NCBI GenBank assembly: GCA_050125095.1
Contig: JASFEA010000063.1
Coordinates: forward strand, 1-18,474
Direction: 5' to 3'
From: a bacterium
GTDB taxonomy: Bacteria; Arandabacterota; Arandabacteria; Arandabacterales; JALGWA01
Length of the DNA: 18,474 nucleotides
Shown: piece after piece, positions 2,182 to 18,474 of the stretch
Layout: each line of letters opens with the position of its first letter
How positions within the stretch are numbered: position 1 is the first letter of the stretch
Notes under the pieces: generated by a model
What the model was told of the DNA's origin: nothing
What the model saw: the letters and a program-made list of their open reading frames with translations, nothing else
Databases searched by the model: none
Program-made: the position numbers and the translations under genes

Positions 2182-2532
2182 ATGTCACGTCTGTCGCTGC
2201 TCACAGTTATTCTGCTTCTCTCGCTGTTCCCCTGGCCTGCGCCGAGCCATGCCCAATCCGATGAGCCCATTCAAATCGCCGCAGCCGGCGACCGGGCTAC
2301 AGAACTCCAGAAGCAGAGCGACTACCATCAGCGTGTGGAGAAGAAAAGGGAGGAAAGGGAGATTGAGAAGCAGGTTGCAGCCATAGCGGATACACCGACC
2401 GGTGGCCGGATTCTTGACGATTTCGTGCTGATATTGCTGGCGGTTTCCGCCAGCGCCATCTTCCTCATATCCAGACGAGTGCGCAGCGGGCGCAGGAGAA
2501 GAACGCGACCTCGCAGCCTACCGCTTGGCTAG
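2182..2532 (+). CDS. Hypothetical small exported or membrane protein (signal peptide, charged helix, C-terminal TM, Arg-rich tail)
   Basis: N-terminal signal peptide ending ...SHA-Q; charged helix (RVEKKREEREIEKQ); TM FVLILLAVSASAIFLI followed by RRVRSGRRRR; upstream SD and promoter-like sequence. Confidence 0.6.
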   Translation: MSRLSLLTVILLLSLFPWPAPSHAQSDEPIQIAAAGDRATELQKQSDYHQRVEKKREEREIEKQVAAIADTPTGGRILDDFVLILLAVSASAIFLISRRVRSGRRRRTRPRSLPLG

Positions 2533-3324
2533 CGTGCTCGAAGGGCAGTACTTCTCAAGGACGCAGTCTTCGCATCTCGGTTTCCTCGACTTGCAGACCT
2601 CCCTCCCGTGCAGGATGACTATGAAAGAGAAAGGCTGCCACTCGCGCCTCGGCAGAATCTCCATGAGGTCGAATTCAATCTTGACGGGGTCGGTATGCCG
2701 GGTAAGCCCGAGCCTGCCGCTCACTCTCTTCACGTGAGTGTCCACTGCGATCGCCGGCTTGTTGAATGAGCCCGCCAGAACAACATTTGCGGTCTTCCTT
2801 CCGACTCCGCGAAGTGTCACCAGGTCATCTATATTGTCGGGGACCCCGCCGTCGAACCTATCGACGATATCCTGCGACAGCTCCATAATGCTCTTGGCCT
2901 TGGCCCTGAAGAATCCGGTTGGTCTTATCTCCTTCTCCAGCGTGCTCCTTCTTGCCCGCGCGAAGTCCCCGGGAGAGCGGTACTTCTTGAAGAGAGTCTC
3001 CGTGACCATGTTAACCCTCTTGTCCGTGCACTGCGCCGAGAGAACAGTGGAGACCAGAAGCTGGAAGGGATTTTCGGCCTTAAGTGCGGTGCCCGCACCG
3101 GGGTACTTCTTCCTGAGGACAGCCGCTATGCGCTTTGCTCTCTTTCTGAGATCTTCCCTGCTCTCCCTTCCTCGCCTCGCCGGTGCTCTGCTTTTCGCTT
3201 TTACGGCGGCGGACCTTCCCTGGCGTTTCGCCTTCGATGACTTCCCCGCCGGCTCATTCTCTTCGGGTTTCTTCTTCGCGGACTTCTTCCCTGAAGACTT
3301 CTTCTTCGCCGTCGCCTTCTTCAT
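2518..3324 (-). CDS. nth: Endonuclease III (DNA glycosylase/AP lyase) with a Lys/Arg-rich N-terminal extension
   Basis: PFQLLVSTVLSAQCTD; HhH motif LRGVGRKTANVV; AVDTHVKRV; 4Fe-4S motif C-x6-C-x2-C-x5-C (CKSRKPRCEDCVLEKYC). Confidence 0.93.
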   Translation of the reverse strand: MKKATAKKKSSGKKSAKKKPEENEPAGKSSKAKRQGRSAAVKAKSRAPARRGRESREDLRKRAKRIAAVLRKKYPGAGTALKAENPFQLLVSTVLSAQCTDKRVNMVTETLFKKYRSPGDFARARRSTLEKEIRPTGFFRAKAKSIMELSQDIVDRFDGGVPDNIDDLVTLRGVGRKTANVVLAGSFNKPAIAVDTHVKRVSGRLGLTRHTDPVKIEFDLMEILPRREWQPFSFIVILHGREVCKSRKPRCEDCVLEKYCPSSTLAKR

Positions 3325-3353: not shown

Positions 3354-3989
3354 TTAGAATTCCTCCTTGACCTTCTGACTCAAGTGGGAGTTCCTGTTCC
3401 AGCTAATGAGTGTGAAAGCCCCACCGGCGTGTTCAAACACGCAATAGGCGGCGTTGTCGGTATAGAACTTCCAGAAGTAAGGCGGCGGCACATTGAGCAT
3501 GAAGGCGGCGAGCACCTTGATCACGGACCTGTGCGTCACGATAGCGATGGCCCCGTCCCTTGCCGAGACTATATCCTCAAGCCTGGCCGAGGCCCTTTCC
3601 CTGACGTCCTCCACGGACTCCCCTCCCGGCACCACCAGGTGCTCGGGCTCGGTTGTCCAGCGCCGCCACTCGTCCGGATAATCCTCCATCACCTTCTTCT
3701 TCGGGACGCCCTGCCAGCTGCCGAGGTTTATGTTATTGAAAGCCTCGTCAACCTCGTAGCCAATCCCGAGCGCAACCGCGATTGTCTGCGCGGTTACCGC
3801 CGCCCGTTTAAGCGGACTCGTCAAGATAAGATCGATCCCCTCGCCGACCAGGGCGTCTCCTGTCTCCCGGGCCTGCTTGAGGCCCACTTCGTTGAGGTCT
3901 ACGTCAAACCGGCCCCTGAATACCCCCAGGCGGTTGAATTCAGTCTCTCCATGCCTGACGAGATAGATCCTGGTGTTACGCTTTGCCAT
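3354..3989 (-). CDS. Histidine phosphatase / phosphoglycerate mutase family protein (PhoE/CobC/GpmB-like)
   Basis: LVRHGET, SPLKRA, PGGES and VTH motifs. Start placed at MAKRN (3989), overlapping the nfi stop, rather than at 4040. Confidence 0.85.
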   Translation of the reverse strand: MAKRNTRIYLVRHGETEFNRLGVFRGRFDVDLNEVGLKQARETGDALVGEGIDLILTSPLKRAAVTAQTIAVALGIGYEVDEAFNNINLGSWQGVPKKKVMEDYPDEWRRWTTEPEHLVVPGGESVEDVRERASARLEDIVSARDGAIAIVTHRSVIKVLAAFMLNVPPPYFWKFYTDNAAYCVFEHAGGAFTLISWNRNSHLSQKVKEEF

Positions 3990-4692
3990 TGCTATATCCG
4001 ATCGGTTGCCCAACCCCGCCCCGCACCTCGAGCTTGCCAACGCTCAGACTATGCGCAAGCCTAAGGGGCTCCGGGATACGATACCTGGGCGAACACGCCA
4101 GCACAAGGTCAACCGATGTCGCCAGGTCGATGCGGTTCCCCACGGACACGTATACGGGCTTCACCCCGTCCCGTGTGCGGACGGCCGCCCCTACAATGCC
4201 TCCGTCCCTGCCGTGCATATAAGACATCGAGCCCTTCCTGGCGCCGGGCTCGGCGAACTCCCCGTAGAGCACGGACTTGGCGCAGCCCAGAACGGGAGAG
4301 TCCAGCAGTATGCCGACATGAGTCGCCAGCCCCAATCCGCGCGGATGGGCAAGCCCCTGGGCGTCGCACATGAGAACGTCGGGTGCGGTCCGCACTTTCT
4401 CAAGACAGCCGAGGAGCGCCGGAACCTCCCGGAACGAAAGATAACCCGGCACATAGGGAAATCTCACCTTCCCCTTCTTGACGCGCGTCTCGACGATCTC
4501 CAGATCGGGGAAGGTGAGTACCACGACCGCCGCCAGCACTGTATTCCTGTCAGGTAAACCCACGTCGGCCGCAGCTATCAGCCGCACCTCGCGGCCGTCC
4601 CACTCGGGTACCAGCCGCCCTGCGAGCGCCAGCTGAATCTCTTTTGCGCGCGCGGTGCCGACCTTCCAAGGATGGAGTTTGAGGTATTTCAA
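3976..4692 (-). CDS. nfi: Endonuclease V (deoxyinosine 3' endonuclease)
   Basis: AADV, FPYVPGYLSFRE, DAQGLAHPRGLGLATHVG, GCAKS, PVYVSVG and RYRIPEPLRLAH motifs; ATGA-type overlap with the rhomboid stop. Confidence 0.93.
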   Translation of the reverse strand: MKYLKLHPWKVGTARAKEIQLALAGRLVPEWDGREVRLIAAADVGLPDRNTVLAAVVVLTFPDLEIVETRVKKGKVRFPYVPGYLSFREVPALLGCLEKVRTAPDVLMCDAQGLAHPRGLGLATHVGILLDSPVLGCAKSVLYGEFAEPGARKGSMSYMHGRDGGIVGAAVRTRDGVKPVYVSVGNRIDLATSVDLVLACSPRYRIPEPLRLAHSLSVGKLEVRGGVGQPIGYSNGKA

Positions 4693-5483
4693 GAACGCTT
4701 CCCGCTCTGCTTCTGGAGGAAGTTCCTTTCGCGGTTTGAAAGGGAATCCAGGCCCTCGCGGTTGATCTTATCTAGGATGCGGTCAACCTCGGCCCTGAGC
4801 TCCCGCTCCTTCTCCTCGTCTTTCCGCCGTGCCGCATCCTCTCTCCTTACCATGCTCCTCCGCTGCCAGCGCTTGAGGGGATACGTGATCCTCTCCCACT
4901 TAAGATATAAGTAGCCGACCACGAGACCGCCGAGATGCGCGAACCTCGCTACACCGGCATTCGGAAGGGCGAAAAGCGAGATGAGCTCGATGAGGCCGAT
5001 GAGCACGGCGAAATGCTTCGCCTTGATCCGGATGAAGAAATAGAGAAGAAGTTCCCTGTCCGGAAACGCCATCCCGAAGGCGATAATGAGCCCGAAGACG
5101 GCGCCGGATGCTCCTATGATGGGCACTGCCGAGTGCGGCTGCACGAGAACATTGACGACGCCCGCGCCGGCTCCCGTCACCAGGTAGTACTTGACGAACT
5201 CCCTGCTTCCCCAGTAGCGCTCCAGCTCCGAACCCATCATCCACAGGAACAGCATGTTGAAGAATATATGAAGCAGGCTGCCGTGGAGGAACATGTAGGT
5301 CACGAGTTGCCATATGAAGCCGCGCCCGAGAACCAGGGCCGGCACGAGGCCGAATACCCTGAGGTAGCCATCGGGGGCGAAGTGCTGGACGATGTAGAGT
5401 ATCAGGTTGATGAGGATGATAAGGCGCACGGCCCGGCTCAGCCCCGGCACTCTCGACTGGGTATATCTCATCCTGTAACTCAT
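4689..5483 (-). CDS. Rhomboid family intramembrane serine protease with a C-terminal soluble helical domain (DUF6576-like)
   Basis: WQLVTYMFLHGSLLHIFFNM, catalytic GASG, AHLGG and multiple TMs; tail EVDRILDKINREGLDSLSNRERNFL. Confidence 0.9.
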   Translation of the reverse strand: MSYRMRYTQSRVPGLSRAVRLIILINLILYIVQHFAPDGYLRVFGLVPALVLGRGFIWQLVTYMFLHGSLLHIFFNMLFLWMMGSELERYWGSREFVKYYLVTGAGAGVVNVLVQPHSAVPIIGASGAVFGLIIAFGMAFPDRELLLYFFIRIKAKHFAVLIGLIELISLFALPNAGVARFAHLGGLVVGYLYLKWERITYPLKRWQRRSMVRREDAARRKDEEKERELRAEVDRILDKINREGLDSLSNRERNFLQKQSGKRS

Positions 5484-5563: not shown

Positions 5564-5592
5564 TTGAAAGTGCGTGTTCCTTCATATAGTAT
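5564..5592 (+). promoter_or_regulatory. Putative sigma70 promoter for the CHAT/ECF operon
   Basis: TTGAAA (5564-5569), 17-nt spacer, TAGTAT (5587-5592); GGGAG SD at 5601-5605 before ATG 5610. Confidence 0.5.
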
Positions 5593-5609: not shown

Positions 5610-7022
5610 ATGAAGCCTATCGAGATTGAGATCATTCCCGTCTCCGGCGAAAGCGTCTCGGTGAGCGTGAACTTCAGTGCGCCGGGTTCCACACCTATCA
5701 TAAGGCGCTGGCATGTGGAGAGGTCCACGCTAGATGAGATAAACGGTACCATCGAAGAAATCGTAGAGAAGGCGCTTGCCGGGCGGTCCAGAGGCGGCGG
5801 AGGATCTCAGGGCGGCCCGGAGGGCGGACCCGCCGAGAGCCTCGAGAACGCCGGTCGGACTTTCTTTGAGGTCCTCTTCAGGCAGCAATGCGACCGCCTC
5901 AGAGCTGCGTTGCGCGGAGGCGACCTGTATTTCATCTTCAAAGTCGACCGCTCTCTTGCCCACCTTCCTTTTGAAGTGCTGCATGACGGCGAGAGGTTCC
6001 TCTCCAGGGACTTCGCCCTCGGAAGAGTGATTTATTCCGAAACCGGCCACCAAAACTCGGGCGGAGCCGCCGGCGGCGACCGGGTCCTGATACTGGGCGA
6101 CCCGTCCGATGACGCCGCCATAAGGGACGACGTCGAACGCGAGGTCGATTCGCTCAGGGACCTTTTCAAGAAAGAGGGCGGATACGGGATGACCATAGGC
6201 ATGGGACGGGAGGTAAGCGAACGCATGGTCCTGTCCCTGCTTCCCGAGACGGCCCTGCTTCATTTCACGGGTCACGGCGCGGCGGCCGCGGACGGCACCG
6301 CGGGCCTTGAGCTTTACAGGGACAGAGTTCTCTCGGCGGAGGCATTCAAGGGCGTCAAACATCCGCCCGCGGTGGCTTTCTTCAATACCTGCTCGACCGC
6401 GTCCCATGAGGCCTGGAGGTCTCCGCTGGGCATCATGGAAGCTCTTATATCAAGGGGCACCCGGGCCTGCATAGCCCCTGTATGGGACGTGGCAAGCGGC
6501 GCGGCGACATCCGTCGCCCTGGCCTTCTACAAACACCTGCTTAAGGACGAGACTTTCGGCGAGGCCCTGCGGAAAGCGAGAGCCGACGTGGCCCGGAACG
6601 GCGACCCCGGCGACCCGACATGGGCGGCCTACGCGCTTTACGGCGATCCGCTGTCCGGGCTCCGGACGCCCACGGGAGATGCGCGGGGCCGGAGGCGCGC
6701 GGGCATCGCCCTGCGCGTGGTATTCGCGGTGATAGCTGCGCTGCTGCTCCTTCTCACCCCCAGGACCATGGACAGGCGCATGACCGATGTTGTCGTTCCG
6801 GTCGAGGTCGGGTATGTTATATTCGAGTCCGAGCCGGCCGACGCAAGGATCTTCTTAGACGGCAAGGATGTCGGATTGACACCGGCGGCGATCGAGGTTA
6901 GCGTAGGTGAACATCAGGTAGCCCTGATGAAGAAGGGATACAGAAGGTGGCAGGCATCGGTAGACGTAAAGAAGGGTCCGGAAACCGTGGTGCGGGCCGT
7001 CCTGCAGAGAACAGAAGAGTAG
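5610..7022 (+). CDS. CHAT-domain (caspase/HetF-like) cysteine protease with a single TM helix and a C-terminal PEGA domain
   Basis: CHAT motifs LAHLPFEVL, LHFTGHG (His, 6273), FFNTCST (Cys, 6390), PVWDV, FYKHL, WAAYALYGDP. TM IALRVVFAVIAALLLLLT after RRR. PEGA motif ESEPADARIFLDGKDVGLTP...VGEHQVALMKKGY. Start moved to ATG 5610 because of the SD. Confidence 0.88.
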   Translation: MKPIEIEIIPVSGESVSVSVNFSAPGSTPIIRRWHVERSTLDEINGTIEEIVEKALAGRSRGGGGSQGGPEGGPAESLENAGRTFFEVLFRQQCDRLRAALRGGDLYFIFKVDRSLAHLPFEVLHDGERFLSRDFALGRVIYSETGHQNSGGAAGGDRVLILGDPSDDAAIRDDVEREVDSLRDLFKKEGGYGMTIGMGREVSERMVLSLLPETALLHFTGHGAAAADGTAGLELYRDRVLSAEAFKGVKHPPAVAFFNTCSTASHEAWRSPLGIMEALISRGTRACIAPVWDVASGAATSVALAFYKHLLKDETFGEALRKARADVARNGDPGDPTWAAYALYGDPLSGLRTPTGDARGRRRAGIALRVVFAVIAALLLLLTPRTMDRRMTDVVVPVEVGYVIFESEPADARIFLDGKDVGLTPAAIEVSVGEHQVALMKKGYRRWQASVDVKKGPETVVRAVLQRTEE

Positions 7023-7660
7023 CCTCGGGACGCTCCCACCCCCGCCGGGCACTGTCCCTGTTGCTTACATTCACCGTGTTGGCCGCATCGACGCTTCCGT
7101 TATCTTCCCCCGCCGTGGGCGCGGAGCTCCCCGACCTGGACGTAAAGGACCTATGGGACTATCCCGAGAACCTCCGCTCCATAGTGGCGGACGGGACGAC
7201 TCTCTTCTTCATATGCGACCCCAAGGTCAAGGAGTGCAGAGAGGGCGCGGTCTTCATCGAGAATCGCGCCTCGGGCATCAATGAGGCCGGCGCGAAGCTC
7301 GTGATGCTGTTCCGCGGCGGCGCCGCGGAGGTACGCAGCGCAGCTCTCGACATGGACCTGGACTCCGACATCTACATAGACGAGGACGGCCACGTCATAG
7401 ATGCGGTTCTCGATGAGGACATCCTGCCCGCCCTCCTCCTGGTCTCAAGCGATGGGACGGTGCTAGAGGCCGTTTACGGCGGCGGAGAATCCCTGGCCGG
7501 CAACATCGAGCAGATTCTACGGTACGAAGTGCCGGAGCCGCCCCCTCCCCCGCCGGCACAGGTTGCCGAGCCCGAAAAGAAAGGCTCGGGCAGGTGGAAG
7601 TACATTCTTGGAGCCGCCGCGGTTATCGTCCTGGGGACTCTCCTGTTCGTAATCGACTGA
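6947..7660 (+). CDS. Exported thioredoxin-fold (redoxin-like) protein with a Pro-rich linker and C-terminal TM anchor; start codon uncertain
   Basis: Signal-like segment RRALSLLLTFTVLAASTLPLSSPAVGA; redoxin-like LPDLDVKDL...LFFICDPKVKECRE...LPALLLVSSDG; PEPPPPPP linker; C-terminal TM YILGAAAVIVLGTLLFVI. Confidence 0.65.
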   Translation: MAGIGRRKEGSGNRGAGRPAENRRVASGRSHPRRALSLLLTFTVLAASTLPLSSPAVGAELPDLDVKDLWDYPENLRSIVADGTTLFFICDPKVKECREGAVFIENRASGINEAGAKLVMLFRGGAAEVRSAALDMDLDSDIYIDEDGHVIDAVLDEDILPALLLVSSDGTVLEAVYGGGESLAGNIEQILRYEVPEPPPPPPAQVAEPEKKGSGRWKYILGAAAVIVLGTLLFVID

Positions 7661-7661
7661 T

Positions 7662-8243
7662 ATGAACGAGAAGGAACTGATCACAAGATGCATCGCGCGC
7701 GACGAGACGGCATGGCGCGAGTTCCTGAAACGATATTCCGACTGCATATACGGCTCGGTAGTCAACCTCCTCAAGAAGTACTCCATAGACTCGGCGGAGA
7801 CGGCCGAGGATATCTACGCCGGGGTTATCGAGAAGCTGCTGGCGGACGACTGCAGGGCGCTTAGGAACTTCAAATGGAACTCCAAGGTCACCACGTGGCT
7901 TATAAGCGTCTCGCGAAACAAGGCCTACGATCACCTGAGGACGCTCAAGCGCAGGCCTACCGTATCCCTCGACGCGCCCGTCTCCGATGACGAGGACGAG
8001 TACATCGATTTCATCGCGGGCGACATCCGCCTCGATCACGATATTGAGGTGAGACTCACCGTGGAGGAGGCTCTCGACAGGCTCCCGCCCGGGGACAGGC
8101 TCATACTCAGGTTCTACTATATTGAAGGACTCAAGGAAAGGGAGATAGCAGAACTGCTCGGCATGTCAACCGACGCCCTATCTGCAAGAAAATCAAGGGC
8201 TTTAGCCAAACTGAGAAAACTCGCAGCAAAAGGGCGGCTGTAG
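7662..8243 (+). CDS. ECF-type RNA polymerase sigma-70 factor
   Basis: Region 2 (ELITRCIARDETAWREF...AEDI...TTWLISVSRNKAYDHLR) and region 4 HTH (LDRLPPGDRLILRFYYIEGLKEREIAELLGMS...RALAKLR); 193 aa. Confidence 0.92.
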   Translation: MNEKELITRCIARDETAWREFLKRYSDCIYGSVVNLLKKYSIDSAETAEDIYAGVIEKLLADDCRALRNFKWNSKVTTWLISVSRNKAYDHLRTLKRRPTVSLDAPVSDDEDEYIDFIAGDIRLDHDIEVRLTVEEALDRLPPGDRLILRFYYIEGLKEREIAELLGMSTDALSARKSRALAKLRKLAAKGRL

Positions 8244-8267
8244 GCGTCACATCTGTAGAGGACAGAA

Positions 8268-8888
8268 ATGAAGAATGAATGCCTGACAGAATCCGAAATC
8301 TCAGCCTATGTAGACGGCACCCTCGACGCCAGGGCGCGGGAGAGGGCCGAGTCCCACCTCGAGCGCTGCCGGCTCTGCCTTAACAGCGTGGCCGAGGTAA
8401 AGCGGCTCACCGACGCCCATGAGGCGAGCCCCGTCCCAACGCCCGAAGCGGCGCTGGCCCGCGCCAGAGAGATCATAGAGGCCGGTGCGGCATCGATGCC
8501 CGGATTCTCGATAGTGGCCGCCCTCCGCCAGGGGATGGTCAAGATCATAGAGACCACGGGCAGCCTCCTGCCCCCTCCCAGTCTCGAGCCCGTAGCCGTC
8601 AGAAAGCGAAGAGACTCGAAGCTACTGCCGCGCGTCGCAAGGTCCATCTCGGGCTACTTCGTAACGGTGGAACTCAGTGAAGAGGGCGGCGAATTCGCCG
8701 CCGAGATTACGATCGTCGACGAGAAGACGTCCGAACTGCCGGACGGTCTAAAGGCCAAGCTGCACGCCGAGGGCGGGAGCGAGACCAGGTACTCGCGGTC
8801 GGGAAGGCTGCGCTTCACTTCTCTTAAGAGGGGGACGTCTGACCTCCATCTTGAGAACATCGGCAGGATAAGACTCGAGATCAGGTAG
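8268..8888 (+). CDS. Putative zinc-binding anti-sigma factor (zf-HC2/ZAS) with a soluble beta-rich C-terminal domain
   Basis: CLTESEISAYVDGTL...ESHLERCRLC (H-x3-C-x2-C); directly downstream of the ECF gene; SD GAGGA; no TM helix visible. Confidence 0.85.
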   Translation: MKNECLTESEISAYVDGTLDARARERAESHLERCRLCLNSVAEVKRLTDAHEASPVPTPEAALARAREIIEAGAASMPGFSIVAALRQGMVKIIETTGSLLPPPSLEPVAVRKRRDSKLLPRVARSISGYFVTVELSEEGGEFAAEITIVDEKTSELPDGLKAKLHAEGGSETRYSRSGRLRFTSLKRGTSDLHLENIGRIRLEIR

Positions 8889-8904: not shown

Positions 8905-10032
8905 CTATTCCCGGACTTCTGAAAGAGCTTTCACGGCCTCGGCTATATCCCTGCGCGCGACCACTCCCACTACCCTCCCGGCATCGACAACCGGAAGGCC
9001 CCCGCAGCGCTCCGCCACGGTCTTCCTGAGCGCGCCGGCCAGGTCATCATCTGGATGAACGCTTATCCTCCCGGCATCCGTTCGCATCACGTCTGCGATG
9101 GGGGTGCTTGCCCATGAGCTCCTCGGCTTGCTCTTTATGTCTTCCACCGCGACCACTCCCCTGAGCTCGTCGCCTTCAACAACCGGGTAGCAGTCGAGGT
9201 GGTGTCTGAAGACGTATTGGTCGACGAGTTCCTGTATGCTTATGTGTGCCGGCACGGCCACGAAATCGCCGCGCATGGCGTCGCGCACTTTGAAGCCCTT
9301 AAGCGCCCCCTCAACCACTACATGGAAGTAGGACGCGGAAGCGGCCTGCCTTAGGAAAAAGCCTATCATGACCATCCACAGCCCGAAGATGAAGTAGCCC
9401 CTGAACACGGCCAGGAAACCGAAGAGCACAAAGATGATACCCACGACGCTTCCCACCCTGCTCGCGACATAGGTGGCCTTCTTTATGTTGCCCGTGCCTT
9501 TCCAGATGGCCGCGCGAAGAAGCCTCCCGCCGTCCAGAGGAAAACCGGGAATGAGGTTGAAGACGCCCAGCATGCCATTCACGATGGCGAGGTACCTGAA
9601 TACCGGCGCGACTCCCCCCGTCTCCCCCGCGGTTCGCACAACGTAATAGACAATGAAGAAAACGAACATGAGCACGAAACTCATCGCCGGACCCGCGATG
9701 GCTATCTTGATCTCGGTCCCGGGCTCATCCGACTCGCGTTCCATCTGCGACACGCCGCCGAAGAGGAAGAGCGTGATCCTCCTGATGGGAACGCCGTGCC
9801 TCTTGGCGACGTAAGAGTGGCTGAGTTCGTGGAGAACCACCGAAGCGAAGAGCATCAGGGCGGCGACCAGGCCCATTATCCAGTAGGAGGCAGCCGACAT
9901 GTCGGGGTAGTTTGTCGGGAAGTAGAGCGAGACAAGGCTCCATGAGACCAGGGCGAATATGATGAACCAGGATACGTTCACCTCTACGGGAATCCCGAAG
10001 ACCTTGAAGAGCCTGATGCTTGTCTTCAGCAT
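8905..10032 (-). CDS. Site-2 protease (M50 zinc metalloprotease) with two CBS domains
   Basis: HELSH, LFLFGGVS, IAIAGP, FNLIPGFPLDGGR, several TMs, and a C-terminal CBS pair (YPVV...GVV; LPVVD...GVV); SD GGAGG. Confidence 0.92.
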   Translation of the reverse strand: MLKTSIRLFKVFGIPVEVNVSWFIIFALVSWSLVSLYFPTNYPDMSAASYWIMGLVAALMLFASVVLHELSHSYVAKRHGVPIRRITLFLFGGVSQMERESDEPGTEIKIAIAGPAMSFVLMFVFFIVYYVVRTAGETGGVAPVFRYLAIVNGMLGVFNLIPGFPLDGGRLLRAAIWKGTGNIKKATYVASRVGSVVGIIFVLFGFLAVFRGYFIFGLWMVMIGFFLRQAASASYFHVVVEGALKGFKVRDAMRGDFVAVPAHISIQELVDQYVFRHHLDCYPVVEGDELRGVVAVEDIKSKPRSSWASTPIADVMRTDAGRISVHPDDDLAGALRKTVAERCGGLPVVDAGRVVGVVARRDIAEAVKALSEVRE

Positions 10033-10181: not shown

Positions 10182-11897
10182 ATGGAAAACCACCGCATAG
10201 CCGACATCTTCGACGAAATCGCGGACGTGCTCGAACTTAAGGATGAGAGCGTATTCCGCATAAGGTCGTACCGCAGGGGCGCCAGGGCGATCCGCGATCT
10301 ACCGGAAGACGTCAAGACCCTCGCCGAGAGCGGGGAGCTTATCAAAGTCCCCGGCATAGGCAAGAGCCTGGCCGAGAAGGTCGATGAGGTGCTCGCAACC
10401 GGCACGTCCGAGTTCTACGAGAAGATCAAGAAGGCGCCCGAGTATCAGCTCCTGCCCCTGCTCGGCATTCCGGGCCTGGGGCCCAAGCACGTAATGCAGT
10501 TCTACCGGGTGCTCGGCATCGCGAGCGTCGATGACCTCGAGAATGCCGCCAGGGCCGGCAGGCTCCACGACCTGGAGCGCGTCGGAGAGAAACTCGAGGA
10601 GAAGATCCTCAAGGGAATCGAGCAGCACCGGAGAAGCAGCGGGCGGTACCGGCTCGCGGAGGCGCTCCATCATGCGGAGTCGGTGGTCGAAGAGCTCAGG
10701 AGACTCAAGGGAGTGACGAGAATCGACGTGGCCGGCAGCTGCCGGCGCATGAAGGAGACCATTGGTGACATCGACATACTCGTTATCTCCAGGTCCCCCG
10801 AGAAGATCATGGAAGCGTTCACCAGGATGAAGTCCGTGGCCGATGTGATAGCCCGCGGCGGCACCAAGTCCAGCGTCCTCCTCCGCGCCGGCATTCAGGT
10901 CGACCTCCGGGTTCTGCGCAAGGAGAACTACGGCGCGGCGCTGCATTATTTCACGGGGTCGCAGGACCACAATGTAATCATCCGGGACCGCGGCAAGCGC
11001 AGGGGCCTGCGCGTGAGCGAGTACGGCGTCTTCAACGTGGAGACCGCCGAGCGGCTGGGCGGCGAGACCGAGGATGAGATATTCTCCGCGCTCGGGCTTC
11101 CGTTCATCCCCCCGGAGCTCAGGGAGAACAACGGCGAGTTCGAGGCCGCGGACGAGGGCCGGCTCCCGAAACTGGTTGAGATGAAGGACATCAGGGGCGA
11201 CCTGCATATGCACACCACCGCCACCGACGGCCGCAATACGCCCAGAGAGATGGCGACGGCAGCCAGGAAGCGGGGCTACAAATACATAGCCATAACAGAC
11301 CATTCCCAGGCAGTCAGGGTCGCGGGCGGCCTCGACGCCGACGAGCTGGCGGCGCATATAAAGGCCGTCAGGAGGGCCAACAAAGAGGTCAAGGGCATCG
11401 AGGTCCTCACCGGTGTCGAGGTGGACATATTGAAGGACGGCAGTCTCGACCTGCCCGATGACGTCCTCAAACAATGTGACGTCGTGGTGGCCGCCGTCCA
11501 CTCGGGCTTCAGCATGCCGGAGAATAAGATGACCGAGCGCATACTCAGGGCCTTCGAGAACGAGAACGTGAACATACTCGCCCACCCGACGGGAAGGATA
11601 ATCGGGGAACGCGAGCCATATGAGGTGGACATGGAGGCCGTGATAAAAGCGGCCAGGGAGTCCGGGGTTGCGCTTGAACTCAACGCGTTTCCCGATAGAC
11701 TTGACCTCAAGGACGTGCACTGCCGCGCCGCCAGGGAAGCCGGAGCAAAAATAAGCATCGGTACGGATTCGCATGCCGTGGCTCATCTTGATAACATGCG
11801 CTACGGAACAGGCACGGCGAGAAGGGGCTGGTGCGAGGCCGGAGACATAGTGAACACGATGACGCTCGCGAAGCTCAGGAAGTTCATCGCGCGCTAG
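10182..11897 (+). CDS. polX: DNA polymerase X / PHP 3'-5' exonuclease
   Basis: HhH motifs VPGIGKS and IPGLGPK; GSCRRMKETIGDIDIL (DxD intact); QVDLR; YFTGS. PHP motifs DLHMHT, TDHS, HPTGR, TDSH. Confidence 0.95.
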   Translation: MENHRIADIFDEIADVLELKDESVFRIRSYRRGARAIRDLPEDVKTLAESGELIKVPGIGKSLAEKVDEVLATGTSEFYEKIKKAPEYQLLPLLGIPGLGPKHVMQFYRVLGIASVDDLENAARAGRLHDLERVGEKLEEKILKGIEQHRRSSGRYRLAEALHHAESVVEELRRLKGVTRIDVAGSCRRMKETIGDIDILVISRSPEKIMEAFTRMKSVADVIARGGTKSSVLLRAGIQVDLRVLRKENYGAALHYFTGSQDHNVIIRDRGKRRGLRVSEYGVFNVETAERLGGETEDEIFSALGLPFIPPELRENNGEFEAADEGRLPKLVEMKDIRGDLHMHTTATDGRNTPREMATAARKRGYKYIAITDHSQAVRVAGGLDADELAAHIKAVRRANKEVKGIEVLTGVEVDILKDGSLDLPDDVLKQCDVVVAAVHSGFSMPENKMTERILRAFENENVNILAHPTGRIIGEREPYEVDMEAVIKAARESGVALELNAFPDRLDLKDVHCRAAREAGAKISIGTDSHAVAHLDNMRYGTGTARRGWCEAGDIVNTMTLAKLRKFIAR

Positions 11898-13955
<2,058 letters not shown>

Positions 13956-14008: not shown

Positions 14009-15001
14009 CTAGGTGTTGAACTCGATGATATCCTTATCGTCGAGAACGTGGTCTTTCTCCACGGGCAGGCCGTCGATCTTGGTGTGCCCCCAGACCCTCG
14101 CAAACTTGAGATTGTCGTGGAAGTCGCGGTGCACGATTCTCGCCATTTCTATGACCGTCGTGCCCCGCTTCACAACGTAGGGTTTGGAGAGGTCCGGCTC
14201 CTTATGCGGCGCCTTGGAGTATACCCTGACGATGCCGAGCATCTCGTATATGGTCTGGCGCAGCGCCTCCAGGCCTTCTCCCGTCTCGCATGAAACCTTG
14301 TGTATGGGAAGGTCTCCGGACACGGGCTTCACTATGTCGATGAAGATATCGGCTCCGCCCAGGTCGATCTTGTTCACAACCATCAATGTTTTTTTCTGGG
14401 TCATCTTGAAATCGGACTGCTCCTGGTCGGTCTCCAGCGCCGTGAGCCTGATGCCGACCTTCTCCAGGCGGTCCAGCACCACCGCGAGCGACTTGTCGGG
14501 ATCGAGGTCCGCGAGGCCCAGAACCAGGAGTACTATGTCTGACTCCCTTATGATGTTGCTGAACCACCCCTCATAATGGGTCTCGGTTATCGGCGGCATA
14601 TCCACCAGCTGTATCTGTATGTCTTCATAGGGCATCATTGCCGGCTGGACTTTCATTGTCGTGTAGGGATAGGCTGCTATCTCGGGCTTGGCGTGGGTCA
14701 GCCTGTCCACAATGCTGCTCTTGCCGGAATTGGCCGGCCCGATCAACACGACCTGCCCCGCGCCCGACCGCTTAACGTACTCGCCGTGCCTTTTGCCGCC
14801 GCCGCCCTTCTTGGCCTGCTGGACCTCTTCGGTCGTGCGCGAGATGCGGCGCTTGATGTCGGCCTGGAGCTTCTCGGTTCCCTTGTGCTTGGGTATGACC
14901 GAGAGCATCTCGCGCAGCGCGCGCAGCCGGTCCCGCGGGGTCGCGGCTTCCTTGTACTTCCTCTCGGCCTCGAAATACTGTGGTGTCAGATTAGCGGGCA
15001 T
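14009..15001 (-). CDS. OBG-family GTPase, DRG/RBG-like, with a C-terminal TGS domain
   Basis: N-terminal PKHKGTEKL...IK; G1 GPANSGKSS, G2 YPYTT, G3 QLVDMPP, G4 NKID; TGS RVYSK...IHRD-like VHRDF...FARVWG. Start at MPANL (15001) with SD GGAGG. Confidence 0.88.
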   Translation of the reverse strand: MPANLTPQYFEAERKYKEAATPRDRLRALREMLSVIPKHKGTEKLQADIKRRISRTTEEVQQAKKGGGGKRHGEYVKRSGAGQVVLIGPANSGKSSIVDRLTHAKPEIAAYPYTTMKVQPAMMPYEDIQIQLVDMPPITETHYEGWFSNIIRESDIVLLVLGLADLDPDKSLAVVLDRLEKVGIRLTALETDQEQSDFKMTQKKTLMVVNKIDLGGADIFIDIVKPVSGDLPIHKVSCETGEGLEALRQTIYEMLGIVRVYSKAPHKEPDLSKPYVVKRGTTVIEMARIVHRDFHDNLKFARVWGHTKIDGLPVEKDHVLDDKDIIEFNT

Positions 15002-15141
15002 TGTTCCCTCCGATAGGATTCTAACCACGAAGCGGCGCCTATTCAACCGGTTCGTGGCTCTTAGATGAGAGCTTGAGGGCCGGCATTTTGTTTGGTACAG
15101 TGCCAGTGAAGCAGAGACCCGGACACAAGGACGGTGTGCTG

Positions 15142-15741
15142 ATGACGAGAATCCTGTTATTCGCCTTCCTCGTATCAGTCATAGTGGCCGCGATGGCCGC
15201 ATGCGCTTCAGCCGGCTCCGATCACAAGATCGCGGTTCACGTGCTCCCCCACTCCGGCAGGACCTGCGGAAGCCTGCCCGAAGTCCCGGGCTGCATGGAC
15301 ATCAACCATACGCTTGCCGGCTGCGGCGACGTGGATGTCTATCCTGTGGTCTACGATATTTCGGGCATAACCGGCATAGAGGTCGGACTCACCTGGCCTG
15401 AGGCCTGGGGCAGCTGCGCCTTCACGCCATGTGGCATCGATTTCGTCATATCCGAGATCAAATGGCCCGGCGACGGGATCAGCGGCACCTGGCAGGAATG
15501 CCAGAACGACCGCTCAATAGTGATCGGGTTCGGCTGGCTGGCGCCGACATCGGCGGGGCTGATATGCCCCTCACCTCTCCGGACCACCGGTTTCATCGGT
15601 GTTGCCGACTGCGGCTACGCCGTATATCCGCCGTCCGCCCTGTTCTGCGCAGGCGTATGCGGCGCCGAGGGCGATGACCCCTGCGGAGGCCGCGTCTCAG
15701 AGGACAGGACCTGGGGCTCGATCAAGTCCATGTACAGGTAA
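15142..15741 (+). CDS. Secreted Cys-rich hypothetical protein with a C-terminal TWGxIKxxYR motif
   Basis: Signal peptide MTRILLFAFLVSVIVAAMAACASA with SD AAGGA; 12 Cys; ends EDRTWGSIKSMYR. Confidence 0.75.
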   Translation: MTRILLFAFLVSVIVAAMAACASAGSDHKIAVHVLPHSGRTCGSLPEVPGCMDINHTLAGCGDVDVYPVVYDISGITGIEVGLTWPEAWGSCAFTPCGIDFVISEIKWPGDGISGTWQECQNDRSIVIGFGWLAPTSAGLICPSPLRTTGFIGVADCGYAVYPPSALFCAGVCGAEGDDPCGGRVSEDRTWGSIKSMYR

Positions 15742-15902: not shown

Positions 15903-17762
15903 ATGAAGAAATACGCCCTGCCCGTGCTGCTCGTGGTCTTATTGTGCCTGATGCCCGCCCTTTCTTTTTCGGAGAAGCTCGCCGAGAAGGTGACGGAGTT
16001 CTATCTCGACAACGGGATGAAGTTCATCGTTGTCGAGCGCAACGTCTCCCCCACATTCTTCGGCGTTATAGGCTTCGATGTCGGGAGCATCAACGAGCGG
16101 GACGGCATCACAGGCATCTCACACCTGCTCGAACACATGATGTTCAAGGGCACCTCCACGGTCGGCACCACAAACTACAGGAGGGAACTCAAGTACATAG
16201 AGAAGATCGACGACCTGGCGCTCGAGATAATGGATGTGAGGCCCCAGATCGGCGACTGGCGCCTGGAGATCTTCGACGAATTCTCCAGGGAACTCATGGC
16301 CTCCCAGACCGAAGAGGACAAGGGGACCGCCGGGGCCGACAAGATCGCGGAGCTCACCGCCCTCACCGAGATGCTGGCCAATAGCACGGCTACACCGCAG
16401 GAGGCCAAGGTCTACCCCACGCTTCTGAAAGAGCCGGGGGTCGACTACTTCGAGAAATACAGGTATCTCAAGGGGCTGGAACTCGAGCTCGCGAAAGCCC
16501 AGAGAGAGCACAAGCAGTTCGTCGTCAAGGACGAGCTCTGGGACACCTACAAGCAGAACGGCGGCAGAATGCTCAATGCCTTCACCGCCAATGACCTCAC
16601 CGCATACATCGTGGCCCTGCCCGCCAACCGCCTGGAACTGTGGATGATGCTGGAATCCGACCGCATGAAGGACGCCGTTTTCCGCGAGTTCTATTCCGAG
16701 CGCGACGTCGTCATGGAGGAGCGTCGCCTCGGCGAAAACGACCCCGATAGCGAGCTCTGGGACGTATTCGCGGCGACAGCCTTCCAGGCGAGTCCCTACG
16801 GCCGCCCGGTGGTGGGCTGGATGAGCGACATCGAGATGATGACCAGGCAGGAAGTGGAAGCTTACTTCAAGCAGTACTACGCGCCCAACAACGCGACGGC
16901 CATGCTCGTGGGCGACATCGACCCGGCCGAGGTTGAGATGCTGGCGAAGAAGTACTTCGGCCGCATACGGGCTCAGACGCCGCCGCCGGCCGTAGTCACG
17001 GTCGAGCCCGAGCAGAAAGGCGAGAGGCGCGTCGTCCTGGAATTCGACGCCAGCCCCAAGCTCCTGATAGGCTACCACGTGCCCGTCGCCCCGCACCCCG
17101 ACGCCTACGCGCTAGAGGTGCTGATGGCCGTTCTCGGGCAGGGACGGACTTCGAGGTTCTATAAGAAAATATACGAGGAACTCGAGCTCACTTCATCGCC
17201 CCCCGGGGTGGGCGCCGAGCCGGGCAGTAAGCTGCCCAATCTGCTCGCTATCGTGGCCGAACCGCGCCATCCCCATACGACCGAAGAGGTGGAACAGGCC
17301 ATTTATGAGGAGATCGAGGTCATAAAACAGGAGCCGCCGACGGAGCGCGAACTGCAGCGCCTGAGGAACCGAATCGACGCCCAGATGGTTAGAAGCCTTG
17401 GAAGCAACTATGGGATCGCTTTCCAGCTGGGCTTCTCGGAGCTGATAAGGGGCAGCTGGCGGACTTATCTGGAGGACATGGAGCGGGTGAAGGCCGTCAC
17501 ACCGGAGGAGGTCTCGGCTGTCGCCGCGAAGTACCTGACTCCGAGCAATCGCACCGTCGCCACGCTCGTCAAGATAGAGAAGGAAGAGGGCGAAGAGGAC
17601 GAGATGGAGGGCATCGACATCCAGGCGCTCATCCAGTGGGTGCGCACTCTGCCCGAGGAGGAACAGAAGGAGATCTTCATGAGGTTCCAGAGCATGACGC
17701 CCGAGGAACGCGAGGAGCTGGGCAAGCAGCTCTGGCAGCGCATGCAGGCAACCACCGAGTAG
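15903..17762 (+). CDS. Exported M16 (pitrilysin/insulinase family) zinc peptidase, catalytic subunit
   Basis: Signal peptide; LDNGM; inverted zinc motif HLLEH followed by MMFKGT; NAFT; ESDRM; ERDVVMEERR; YYAPNNA; LGQGRTSRFY. Confidence 0.92.
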   Translation: MKKYALPVLLVVLLCLMPALSFSEKLAEKVTEFYLDNGMKFIVVERNVSPTFFGVIGFDVGSINERDGITGISHLLEHMMFKGTSTVGTTNYRRELKYIEKIDDLALEIMDVRPQIGDWRLEIFDEFSRELMASQTEEDKGTAGADKIAELTALTEMLANSTATPQEAKVYPTLLKEPGVDYFEKYRYLKGLELELAKAQREHKQFVVKDELWDTYKQNGGRMLNAFTANDLTAYIVALPANRLELWMMLESDRMKDAVFREFYSERDVVMEERRLGENDPDSELWDVFAATAFQASPYGRPVVGWMSDIEMMTRQEVEAYFKQYYAPNNATAMLVGDIDPAEVEMLAKKYFGRIRAQTPPPAVVTVEPEQKGERRVVLEFDASPKLLIGYHVPVAPHPDAYALEVLMAVLGQGRTSRFYKKIYEELELTSSPPGVGAEPGSKLPNLLAIVAEPRHPHTTEEVEQAIYEEIEVIKQEPPTERELQRLRNRIDAQMVRSLGSNYGIAFQLGFSELIRGSWRTYLEDMERVKAVTPEEVSAVAAKYLTPSNRTVATLVKIEKEEGEEDEMEGIDIQALIQWVRTLPEEEQKEIFMRFQSMTPEEREELGKQLWQRMQATTE

Positions 17763-17776
17763 AGAGGAGGTCCGAG

Positions 17777-18474
17777 ATGTTCTCACAGAGAGCTGGAATC
17801 GGCAGCAGATTCTGGACATCCGTCCTCATCTCTGCCCTTGTCCTGATGTTCGCCGCCACGTCGACGGCCCGCCTGCCCAAGAAACTCAGGTACGGCGAAA
17901 TCGAGTTCGAGCCCCCCGAGCCCGAGACGATAGAGTTCGCCAACGGCCTACACGGCTATTTCCTGGAGGACCATGAGATCCCGGTTATCGACATCGTCAT
18001 CATGTTCAAGGCCACATACCCGGAAGAGTCCAAGACAGGGCTTAACAGCCTGGCGGGGTGGGCCATAAGGAACGGCGGCAGCGCCGGTTTCCCCAAGGAG
18101 ACCATAGATGACGAGCTCGAATTCGTGGGCGCGTCCATCGAGACCAGCGCGGGCGGCTTGACCGGATCCATAAACGCCAACTTCCTCACCAAGGACGCCG
18201 AGATGGTGGTCGAGATTCTTACAGATATCATCGTCAATCCGGCGTTTGCCGAGGACAAGGTCGAGCTTCAGAAAAAGTCCATGATAGAGTCGATCCGGCG
18301 CAAGGCCGACGACCCATGGGACCTGGGACGCAGGGAATACGCCAAGCTGATCTACCATAACCACCCGGCCGGCCGTGAAGCCACCGTGGAAACCGTATCG
18401 GGCCTCACGCGCGATGACGTGGCGGAATTCCACCGCAAGTACGTCAGGCCCAACAACGCGGTTATCGGTATAAC
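17777..18474 (+). CDS. Exported M16 family non-catalytic partner subunit; 3'-truncated by the window edge and absent from the ORF track
   Basis: SD GGAGG then ATG 17777, open to the end: MFSQRAGIGSRFWTSVLISALVLMFAATSTA...FANGLHGYFLEDHEIPVI...KTGLNSLAGWAIRNGG...IDDELEFVGASIE...NPAF...HPAGR...LTRDDVAEFHRKYVRPNNA. HxxEH is absent at the equivalent position. Confidence 0.88.
   Translation, partial: MFSQRAGIGSRFWTSVLISALVLMFAATSTARLPKKLRYGEIEFEPPEPETIEFANGLHGYFLEDHEIPVIDIVIMFKATYPEESKTGLNSLAGWAIRNGGSAGFPKETIDDELEFVGASIETSAGGLTGSINANFLTKDAEMVVEILTDIIVNPAFAEDKVELQKKSMIESIRRKADDPWDLGRREYAKLIYHNHPAGREATVETVSGLTRDDVAEFHRKYVRPNNAVIGI

Follow-up and report, generated by a model that had tools for sequence, protein, structure and literature searches.

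A candidate trans-membrane signalling module of Candidatus Eisenbacteria in which a caspase-like CHAT receptor protease may free an ECF sigma factor from a soluble anti-sigma factor

Introduction

Sigma factors of the extracytoplasmic function (ECF) type are among the most abundant signalling devices of bacteria, and for many of their groups there is no known route by which the signal crosses the membrane. In the classical case, regulated intramembrane proteolysis (RIP; RseA/DegS/RseP, RsiW), an envelope signal leads to proteolysis of the anti-sigma factor and thereby to release of the ECF sigma factor. Here, we analyzed an 18,474-nucleotide contig of Candidatus Eisenbacteria (JASFEA010000063.1, assembly GCA_050125095.1; this whole stretch is called the window below), in which four genes at positions 5610–8888 encode a protein with a caspase-like CHAT protease domain, a transmembrane (TM) segment and a PEGA domain, a thioredoxin-fold protein, an ECF sigma factor, and an anti-sigma factor that lacks a TM segment. 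We read these genes as a trans-membrane signalling module in which the one-pass receptor protease frees the ECF sigma factor by cutting the soluble anti-sigma factor, and we put the probability of this reading at roughly 0.6. The broader statement, that the CHAT protein controls the sigma factor through the anti-sigma factor in some way, is highly probable.

Several described systems, cited here from excerpts of the papers concerned, come close to this arrangement. DdvA of Myxococcus xanthus combines ZAS, a TM segment, and TPR-CHAT in one polypeptide, with the CHAT domain in the periplasm and the ECF sigma factor DdvS as its partner; its active site is incomplete, self-cleavage ahead of RseP action has been proposed, and the authors of that work call it the only characterized anti-sigma factor with TPR-CHAT (PMC11506125). 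Separase, another CHAT-type protease, cuts after arginine (PMC11506125). In type III-E CRISPR systems, the TPR-CHAT protease Csx29 cuts Csx30 in its C-terminal part, which relieves the inhibition of CASP-sigma, the N-terminal fragment being unstable (PMC10028731, where the classical RIP of anti-sigma factors is summarized as well). Finally, genes for CHAT, subtilase, and carboxypeptidase proteins lie near those of the ECF54 sigma factors (PMC8999054), which are actinobacterial and described as having no anti-sigma factor (PMC7826278).

Results

Four coupled genes conserved in 17 genomes of one class

The four genes are tightly packed and run in the same direction, in the order CHAT-TM-PEGA, thioredoxin-fold, ECF, and anti-sigma (Table 1). 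The thioredoxin-fold open reading frame (ORF), if GTG at 6947 is taken as its start, overlaps the CHAT gene by 76 nucleotides, and the two following spacings are 1 and 24 bp. With a single promoter-like site in front, a divergent rhomboid gene as the upstream boundary, and a convergent gene for an M50 peptidase with CBS domains as the downstream one, the ORFs and spacings are those from which the original prediction of a four-gene unit had been made. Pfam matches were judged against the cut-offs of the families, and CHAT, PEGA, Sigma70_r2, Sigma70_r4_2, and zf-HC2 all scored above them.

The CHAT-PEGA protein is found in 17/17 searched genomes of the class, and the order of the four genes is kept in all of them. 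Fifteen of these blocks are complete, and in the other two the contig stops behind the second or third gene; in one of the complete blocks (G017), the second gene was detectable by profile alone (3e-26). Among 43 other relatives searched, there were 10 matches to the CHAT-PEGA protein at E ≤ 1e-5, all weak or partial: 8e-25 in the CHAT region only (G035), 1e-10 with internal stop codons (G031), and 1e-6 to 1e-9 for the rest. Conservation within the order says little by itself because the whole neighbourhood is syntenic there (rhomboid, EndoV, M50, PolX, LigA). A genome of a second family (L037, 16 kb) retains the block and lacks the flanking genes of the window; for another of that family (L036), the contig is 4.8 kb long and the flanks fall outside its span.

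Recurrence of the ECF, anti-sigma, and CHAT trio across phyla

A scan with the CHAT alignment, using one genome per species, yielded 80 loci. Sixty-four of these lie outside Eisenbacteria and belong, going by record titles or tree labels, to Thermodesulfobacteriota, Myxococcota, Nitrospirota, Omnitrophota, Planctomycetota, Binatota, Chloroflexota, and Actinomycetota. The neighbours of these 64 loci were sought with profiles built from the Eisenbacteria genes. At 35 loci, an ECF gene and a homolog of the window's anti-sigma gene stand beside the CHAT gene on the same strand, and the pair almost always comes immediately upstream, giving the order ECF, anti-sigma, CHAT; 4 loci have one of the two genes, and 25 have neither (7 of these without upstream DNA). 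A cultivable species is among the carriers of the trio, Desulfobacter curvatus DSM 3379 (L101). In the CHAT tree, the 18 informative loci without the pair are gathered in a few clades (Actinomycetota/Chloroflexota, nine mostly Myxococcota rows, Syntrophobacteraceae, and three single rows), and the linked loci fill the remainder.

The linkage was also found from the opposite direction. A six-sequence alignment of Desulfobacterota-type anti-sigma factors, searched against metagenomes, gave 43 loci of one subgroup, among which a CHAT gene lies downstream in 24 of the 25 with at least 1300 nucleotides of downstream sequence and an ECF gene upstream in 27 of the 28 with at least 700 nucleotides of upstream sequence. 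As the members of this subgroup are kin, these figures point to tight linkage rather than to many independent events. The two exceptions are a locus with ECF and anti-sigma genes and no CHAT match within 5 kb downstream (L134) and one with anti-sigma and CHAT genes and no ECF match within 5 kb upstream (L127).

Of the gene neighbourhood proposed as a check, CHAT+PEGA next to ECF+zf-HC2, the CHAT, ECF, and anti-sigma genes are recovered in both directions, and the expectation that all four genes would be conserved together needs narrowing: the four stay together in Eisenbacteria, the trio is what persists across phyla, and the thioredoxin-fold protein and PEGA were found only in Eisenbacteria. 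These data bear on the simplest alternative, that adjacency is inherited synteny in a small lineage with no functional link. The synteny of the whole neighbourhood within the order would agree with it. However, the trio occurs in Thermodesulfobacteriota, Myxococcota, Nitrospirota, Omnitrophota, Planctomycetota, and Binatota with other flanks and another gene order, and the linkage holds in the reverse search, which makes mere synteny very improbable.

A one-pass receptor with an intact catalytic dyad

The CHAT match of the 470-residue protein is strong (Pfam 6e-25, 88.7 bits against a cut-off of 24), and among solved structures a CHAT domain protein (8tl0_A, 8e-8) is the one sequence relative. 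The cysteine that the original prediction had singled out for mutation, at position 6390, is Cys261; together with His222, it is invariant in 50/50 aligned relatives, as are G221, N259, E122, and R139, so that the catalytic dyad is intact; D113 is nearly invariant. No TPR match was found by Pfam scan in the window's CHAT protein.

Four arginines directly precede the single TM segment, and the N-terminus has no signal-peptide-like start; by the positive-inside rule, the CHAT domain is therefore predicted to be cytoplasmic, on the same side as the sigma and anti-sigma factors, and PEGA to lie outside. Hydropathy and charge agree here with the topology first proposed, a cytoplasmic caspase-like domain and an outer PEGA domain, and place one TM segment between them.

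Most linked CHAT proteins of the other phyla share this plan of a CHAT domain first, usually one hydrophobic segment, and then a variable part: of 35, the TM hydropathy threshold is reached once in 30, twice in 2, and never in 3. Ten of them were scanned with Pfam. Their variable part contains TPR in four (one of which also has a CsgG/LpoB-like domain), a CsgG-like domain alone in one, and nothing recognizable in five; PEGA was found in none of the ten. One ECF-linked receptor (L054:2491–5679) carries an adenylate/guanylate cyclase domain (1.6e-14) ahead of CHAT, which several relatives of like length (about 1060 residues, TM near residue 630) may share.

A soluble anti-sigma factor with a near-invariant arginine in a flexible loop

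The 206-residue anti-sigma factor contains a zf-HC2 domain (Pfam 7e-7), with the HxxxCxxC motif formed by H30-x3-C34-x2-C37 and an additional C5. Profile matches of the family include RslA (3hug_B, 3.5e-5), RsiW (1.1e-4), and ChrR (2e-3), with weak ones to DdvA (0.056) and RsrA (0.34). The AlphaFold2 (AF2) model (mean predicted local distance difference test, pLDDT, 87.7; sandwich strands above 90) shows no helix after residue 75. For the Ig-like sandwich, Foldseek found no match in PDB at E ≤ 1e-3 and only generic Ig-like sandwiches. That the protein is soluble, as predicted, is supported by this model and by hydropathy: its best 19-residue window reaches 1.27, against 2.7 for the TM segment of the CHAT protein and a TM threshold of 1.6. 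Values under the threshold were obtained for 15 of 16 Eisenbacteria anti-sigma factors, including that of the window, and for 36 of 37 neighbouring anti-sigma factors of other phyla.

In a search of 1.84 billion representatives, the anti-sigma profile matched 370 clusters at E ≤ 1e-30 and 2020 at E ≤ 1e-10, which are upper figures because a few very large repeat proteins are among the top rows; most of the top 150 matches are full-length proteins of 200–250 residues. The ESM Atlas clusters nearest to the window's protein are labelled "hypothetical protein" or "putative Zinc-finger domain-containing protein".

Among 44 anti-sigma factors from several phyla, Arg112 is the sole invariant column, and it is retained in 141 of 143 family representatives, where the zinc ligands H30, C34, and C37 are kept in 142, 142, and 141, respectively. 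The family motif around it reads [A/P]-[V/I]-R-[G/S], with G or S as the next residue in 130/143. Because a near-invariant arginine followed by a small residue lies in a disordered loop and a clan CD protease is encoded next to it, we consider the Arg112 loop a candidate cleavage site; from the conservation of this residue in its neighbour, the CHAT protease would be expected to have arginine specificity at P1.

The same zinc site could suggest a simpler circuit, in which the anti-sigma factor senses oxidants or electrophiles directly through its zinc-thiolate site, as RsrA or ChrR would, and the CHAT and thioredoxin-fold proteins are output of the regulon. The conserved HxxxCxxC with its upstream cysteine, the profile matches to ChrR and, weakly, to RsrA, and the thioredoxin-fold gene in the operon would all fit. 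Yet that thioredoxin-fold protein, found in Eisenbacteria only, has no CxxC and a predicted extracytoplasmic location; the beta-sandwich, the Arg loop, and the predicted docking on CHAT (see below) would be left unexplained, and DdvA, with a CHCC zinc site of its own, is nonetheless a candidate for proteolysis (PMC11506125). We regard direct redox sensing as rather improbable.

Predicted docking of the anti-sigma sandwich on the CHAT domain

The complex of CHAT residues 1–360 with anti-sigma residues 76–206 was predicted in three runs alongside three controls. The docking score had a median of 0.69 (runs 0.75, 0.00, and 0.69), the best control reaching 0.00, and the partner pLDDT was at least 73. 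In the calibration, which holds only roughly because self-made alignments were used, 58 of 80 solved complexes attained 0.69, as did 2 of 110 mismatched pairs. The interface joins CHAT 167–201, a helix and an edge strand, to anti-sigma 159–182, and it includes S/T173, kept in 140 of the 143 family representatives, and the nearly invariant E178. The complex model, proposed as a check of the original prediction, supports docking of the anti-sigma sandwich on the cytoplasmic CHAT domain. As the confident contacts do not involve the Arg loop, the model agrees with an exosite-type interaction and says nothing on the cut.

This geometry could also be explained by tethering without cleavage. The Ig-like domain would dock on CHAT and keep the pair of sigma and anti-sigma factors membrane-bound; release or reshaping of the anti-sigma factor would follow when the receptor changes its conformation, and the protease would serve another purpose such as self-processing. 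The confident contacts do make up a docking surface on an edge strand, apart from the R112 loop, and conformational release of soluble anti-sigma factors is a named mechanism (PMC7826278). However, tethering explains neither the invariance of the His-Cys dyad nor why the loop arginine is kept as well as the zinc ligands, and we consider it unlikely.

Alternatively, the wiring might be reversed, with the anti-sigma factor as a securin-like pseudosubstrate inhibitor of CHAT, other proteins as the real substrates, and the ECF sigma factor only setting the expression level of the pair. Separase is held by its inhibitor securin (PMC11506125), and the 25 of 64 related CHAT proteins that have no ECF neighbour indicate that the protease can act elsewhere. 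Against this stand the complete sigma-binding ZAS domain, kept in 141–142 of the 143 anti-sigma representatives, and the ECF gene adjoining the anti-sigma gene in 27/28 loci; such an inhibitor role would come as a surprise.

The ECF sigma factor and the upstream promoter

The 193-residue sigma factor, an ECF (group IV) protein, scores 94 bits against TIGR02937 (cut-off 42.9), and no NCBIfam equivalog reaches its cut-off for it. The genome of the window (3.35 Mb, 91% complete) has a single copy of the module and about 11 other ECF genes; in the ECF tree, the module ECFs are set apart from 10 of 11 same-genome paralogues with a support of 97.

A consensus scan of the region for promoters found 5 sites where 1.6 were expected. 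The one before the CHAT gene (Table 1) recurs as a similar hexamer pair, equivalently placed, upstream of at least 12 of 17 orthologues, as judged by eye, and a Shine-Dalgarno-like GGGGGAG precedes the ATG of the CHAT gene. An autoregulated promoter of the ECF type was considered and rejected, the conserved upstream element resembling the sigma-70 type. At the other-phyla loci, the sequence upstream of the ECF gene is coding sequence of another gene. At two orthologous loci (L025 and L027), the upstream sequence that the other orthologues have is replaced, about 60–130 nucleotides ahead of the CHAT start, by a perfect inverted repeat that is long (GGGGTCAGGTACCG...CGGTACCTGACCCC type), perhaps the divergent gene's terminator or else a repeat element.

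Outer parts that change from lineage to lineage

The AF2 model of the thioredoxin-fold protein (pLDDT 82) shows the fold flanked by an N-terminal hydrophobic and a C-terminal TM helix. Its top Foldseek match is ResA (1su9_B, E 1e-10, TM-score on the target 0.77), followed by many TlpA, DsbE, and peroxiredoxin structures; the AhpC-TSA match is sub-threshold (6e-4, 20.1 against a cut-off of 26). CxxC is absent from the protein, whose C90 and C97, seven residues apart, are present in 13 and 15 of 17 orthologues, respectively (alignment by eye). D68, R98, E99, D145, the cis-Pro-like P161, and GGG178–180 are invariant, R98-E99 even where the cysteine is replaced by serine.

The start of this ORF is uncertain, the only other in-frame starts being TTG/GTG near 7061/7076. 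As the ORF overlaps the end of the PEGA-coding sequence in another frame (6947–7022), the seeming conservation of its initial residues, which are MGSMGRG-like, may be due solely to the conserved PEGA coding; three orthologues (L030, L031, and L036) begin right at the hydrophobic helix.

A profile search found the gene at none of the 64 CHAT loci outside Eisenbacteria, and PEGA is conserved across Eisenbacteria. The protein is probably a membrane-anchored, non-catalytic or single-cysteine component specific to this lineage, and it may act as a co-sensor of the small PEGA domain. Both are probably accessory sensor parts, the sensing role itself being a guess because the thioredoxin-fold protein is found only in Eisenbacteria and has no CxxC, its cysteines are missing in some orthologues, and PEGA is replaced elsewhere.

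At Desulfobacterota-type loci, a gene of about 650–690 codons, its product often ending in KVITE, precedes the ECF gene. Six of these envelope proteins were scanned; an Ig-like Glucodextran_B stretch was present in all six, TPR in most, and a CsgG/LpoB-like domain in four. This protein may be an outer partner of the receptor, and it fits a picture of lineage-specific outer partners around a constant inner trio.

Occurrence, expression, and surroundings

Near-identical DNA was found in contigs of three further metagenome runs (X2–X4), labelled wetland, sediment, and seawater. Another run (X1) may be the sample of origin, and runs with small shares were excluded. In a wetland metatranscriptome run (X9), a single 232-nucleotide contig corresponds to 8482–8713, inside the anti-sigma gene, with one difference. 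This is at most a weak hint of transcription, because carry-over of DNA is possible, and it concerns the anti-sigma gene alone, not the other genes or co-transcription.

Both flanking genes encode intramembrane proteases, a rhomboid with a C-terminal DUF6576 and a site-2-type M50 peptidase with two CBS domains and no PDZ. They were considered as parts of the system and rejected, being absent beside the block in the second-family locus L037 and in all 64 other-phyla loci; the rhomboid/M50+CBS synteny is confined to the order. Genes related to DNA repair surround the module on both sides (HhH-GPD glycosylase, endonuclease V, PolX-PHP polymerase, and NAD-dependent ligase LigA), a neighbourhood that is syntenic across the order. 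Farther downstream, an ORF without a Pfam match lies between a GTPase-TGS gene and two M16 peptidase genes. A reading of the module as a defence system was rejected as well: PADLOC returned no match for any of the four proteins, and no cas-like domains were found among the window's genes.

Table 1 Coordinates of the module, its parts, and the surrounding genes (window positions unless a locus is named).
Feature	Position	Strand	Description
CHAT-TM-PEGA protein	5610..7022	+	470 aa; N-terminal region 1–106, CHAT 107–346, TM about 364–383, PEGA 403–468
CHAT protease domain	5928..6647	+	His222 codon 6273–6275, Cys261 codon 6390–6392
TM segment of CHAT protein	6699..6758	+	Hydropathy 2.7 at residue 364
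PEGA domain, predicted extracytoplasmic	6816..7013	+	Residues 403–468, Pfam 4e-13
Thioredoxin-fold (ResA/TlpA-like) protein	6947..7660	+	237 aa; N-terminal hydrophobic helix 32–47, C-terminal TM helix 216–236, no CxxC
ECF (group IV) sigma factor	7662..8243	+	193 aa; Sigma70_r2 3.5e-7, Sigma70_r4_2 1.6e-12
TM-less anti-sigma factor	8268..8888	+	206 aa; four-helix zinc-binding domain 8–75 (C5, H30, C34, C37), Ig-like beta-sandwich 79–101 and 122–205
Flexible loop 102–121 of anti-sigma factor, candidate cleavage site	8571..8630	+	Arg112 codon 8601–8603; pLDDT 61–66, no secondary structure
Sigma-70-like promoter candidate	5564..5592	+	TTGAAA-17 nt-TAGTAT, 18 nt before CHAT start codon; consensus scan
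HhH-GPD glycosylase gene	2518..3324	-	
Endonuclease V gene	3976..4692	-	
Rhomboid gene	4689..5483	-	Divergent upstream boundary
M50+CBS peptidase gene	8905..10032	-	Convergent downstream boundary
PolX-PHP polymerase gene	10182..11897	+	
NAD-dependent ligase LigA gene	11946..13955	+	
GTPase-TGS gene	14009..15046	-	
ORF without Pfam match	15073..15741	+	222 aa
M16 peptidase gene	15903..17762	+	
M16 peptidase gene	17636..18472	+	
Gene preceding ECF, Desulfobacterota type	L060:432-2501		
Gene preceding ECF, Desulfobacterota type	L067:1831-3897		
Gene preceding ECF, Desulfobacterota type	L063:1779-3842		
Gene preceding ECF, Desulfobacterota type	L091:942-2975		
Gene preceding ECF, Desulfobacterota type	L101:2445-4406		
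Gene preceding ECF, Desulfobacterota type	L098:2367-4409		

Discussion

A receptor protease acting on a soluble anti-sigma factor

At rest, the anti-sigma factor would hold the sigma factor through its four-helix domain and sit on the CHAT domain of the receptor. A signal at the outer domain, in Eisenbacteria perhaps relayed by the membrane-anchored thioredoxin-fold partner, would turn the protease on, which would then cut the anti-sigma factor after Arg112, in the exposed loop of the beta-sandwich. The sigma-binding fragment would be destabilized or degraded, leaving the ECF sigma factor free for RNA polymerase. The outcome of the site-1/site-2 protease (S1P/S2P) cascade could in this way be reached by one cytoplasmic cut without intramembrane proteolysis, no intramembrane step being needed because the anti-sigma factor has no TM segment.

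The original prediction of a chain from signal through caspase-like cleavage of the anti-sigma factor to ECF release gains from the co-conservation, the dyad, the topology, the solubility of the anti-sigma factor, and the docking model; the cleavage and the sigma release are steps that we infer. Several further observations weigh against this reading. A cut in a loop within a beta-sandwich need not part the two halves, and the window's own copy reads V-R-K, with a lysine after Arg112. One complex run of the three scored 0.00, the agreement between runs was at least 0% of contacts, and the Arg112 loop was not placed in the active site, lying outside the confident contacts. The CHCC zinc site leaves room for autonomous redox control of the anti-sigma factor. 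In the ECF tree, a weakly supported branch (49) joins the ECFs of Eisenbacteria with their counterparts from other phyla, and four module ECFs of other phyla are placed on the paralogue side of it. Autoregulation is not evident, as the upstream promoter is sigma-70-like rather than ECF-like, and the CHAT subfamily has other uses too, given the relatives that have no ECF gene beside them.

Beyond the window, there is about an even chance that the module belongs to a widespread and as yet undescribed class of "receptor caspases": one-pass proteins with a cytoplasmic CHAT domain and interchangeable outer sensors, each converting an envelope signal into gene expression by a single cut after an invariant arginine in a dedicated soluble anti-sigma factor that docks via its Ig-like domain.

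The comparative data provide a compact module with a catalytic His222/Cys261 pair, a candidate scissile bond after Arg112, and a predicted docking surface. If such a class of receptor caspases exists, it would be a third general trans-membrane route to ECF sigma factors, beside intramembrane proteolysis and partner-switching or protein-protein relays, and a bacterial counterpart to receptor-proximal caspase activation in animals. If the cleavage mechanism is true, the role of bacterial caspase-like proteases would widen from defence and cell differentiation to ordinary envelope sensing, and the module would offer a simple orthogonal protease-gated transcription switch.

Comparison with known systems

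The proposed module shares with RIP an extracytoplasmic signal, proteolysis of the anti-sigma factor, and release of the ECF sigma factor. However, RIP acts on membrane-spanning anti-sigma factors and depends on site-1, site-2, and cytoplasmic proteases, whereas here the receptor spans the membrane and the anti-sigma factor is soluble. As predicted, the module differs from the S1P/S2P cascade: at a hydropathy of 1.27, the window's anti-sigma factor is not a membrane-spanning one, and beyond the order the M50+CBS neighbour lies outside the conserved block.

RsrA, ChrR, RslA, and RsiW resemble the window's anti-sigma factor in their N-terminal HxxxCxxC domain. They lack a counterpart of its Ig-like sandwich and Arg loop, ChrR having a cupin domain, and they sense their signals directly rather than via a partner protease.

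Among systems with other proteases, ECF54, as far as the excerpts describe it, has protease genes including CHAT adjoining the ECF gene, but is actinobacterial and without an anti-sigma factor. The excerpts on CalpL/CalpT/CalpS likewise describe a SAVED-Lon protease that acts on an anti-sigma factor, but one that is Lon-type and driven by cyclic oligoadenylate. In the openly licensed PMC papers and bioRxiv, no paper was found on a separate CHAT-TM protein with a soluble anti-sigma factor and an ECF sigma factor. The claim of a new, CRISPR-independent caspase-gated switch is in line with this and with the lack of cas genes in the window; given DdvA and ECF54, the module is less isolated than the claim had it.

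The closest parallels are DdvA and craspase. In DdvA, according to the excerpted text, a CHCC/ZAS domain likewise holds an ECF sigma factor, a His-Cys CHAT domain acts in the same pathway, and sigma release is proposed to begin with CHAT proteolysis that the signal induces. In contrast, the module has a separate CHAT protein, its CHAT domain predicted to be cytoplasmic and the window's copy without TPR, and an anti-sigma factor without a TM segment, so that the window's proteins do not show the DdvA-type fusion of ZAS, TM, and TPR-CHAT with a periplasmic CHAT domain.

The likeness to Csx29, Csx30, and CASP-sigma, drawn already in the original prediction, agrees with the published account: the cleavage target of the CHAT protease is a soluble protein that inhibits an ECF-like sigma factor, and the N-terminal part of Csx30 binds the sigma factor (PMC10028731). 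Cas7-11, Csx29, Csx30, Csx31, and CASP-sigma in a CRISPR locus define craspase, and no such set is present among the window's genes. Whereas Csx29 is activated by target RNA via Cas7-11 (PMC10028731), the expected activator of the module would be an envelope signal passed on by a TM receptor, and its inhibitor is a classical ZAS anti-sigma factor. In principle, the module would work like DdvA and craspase, without the features that define either of them.

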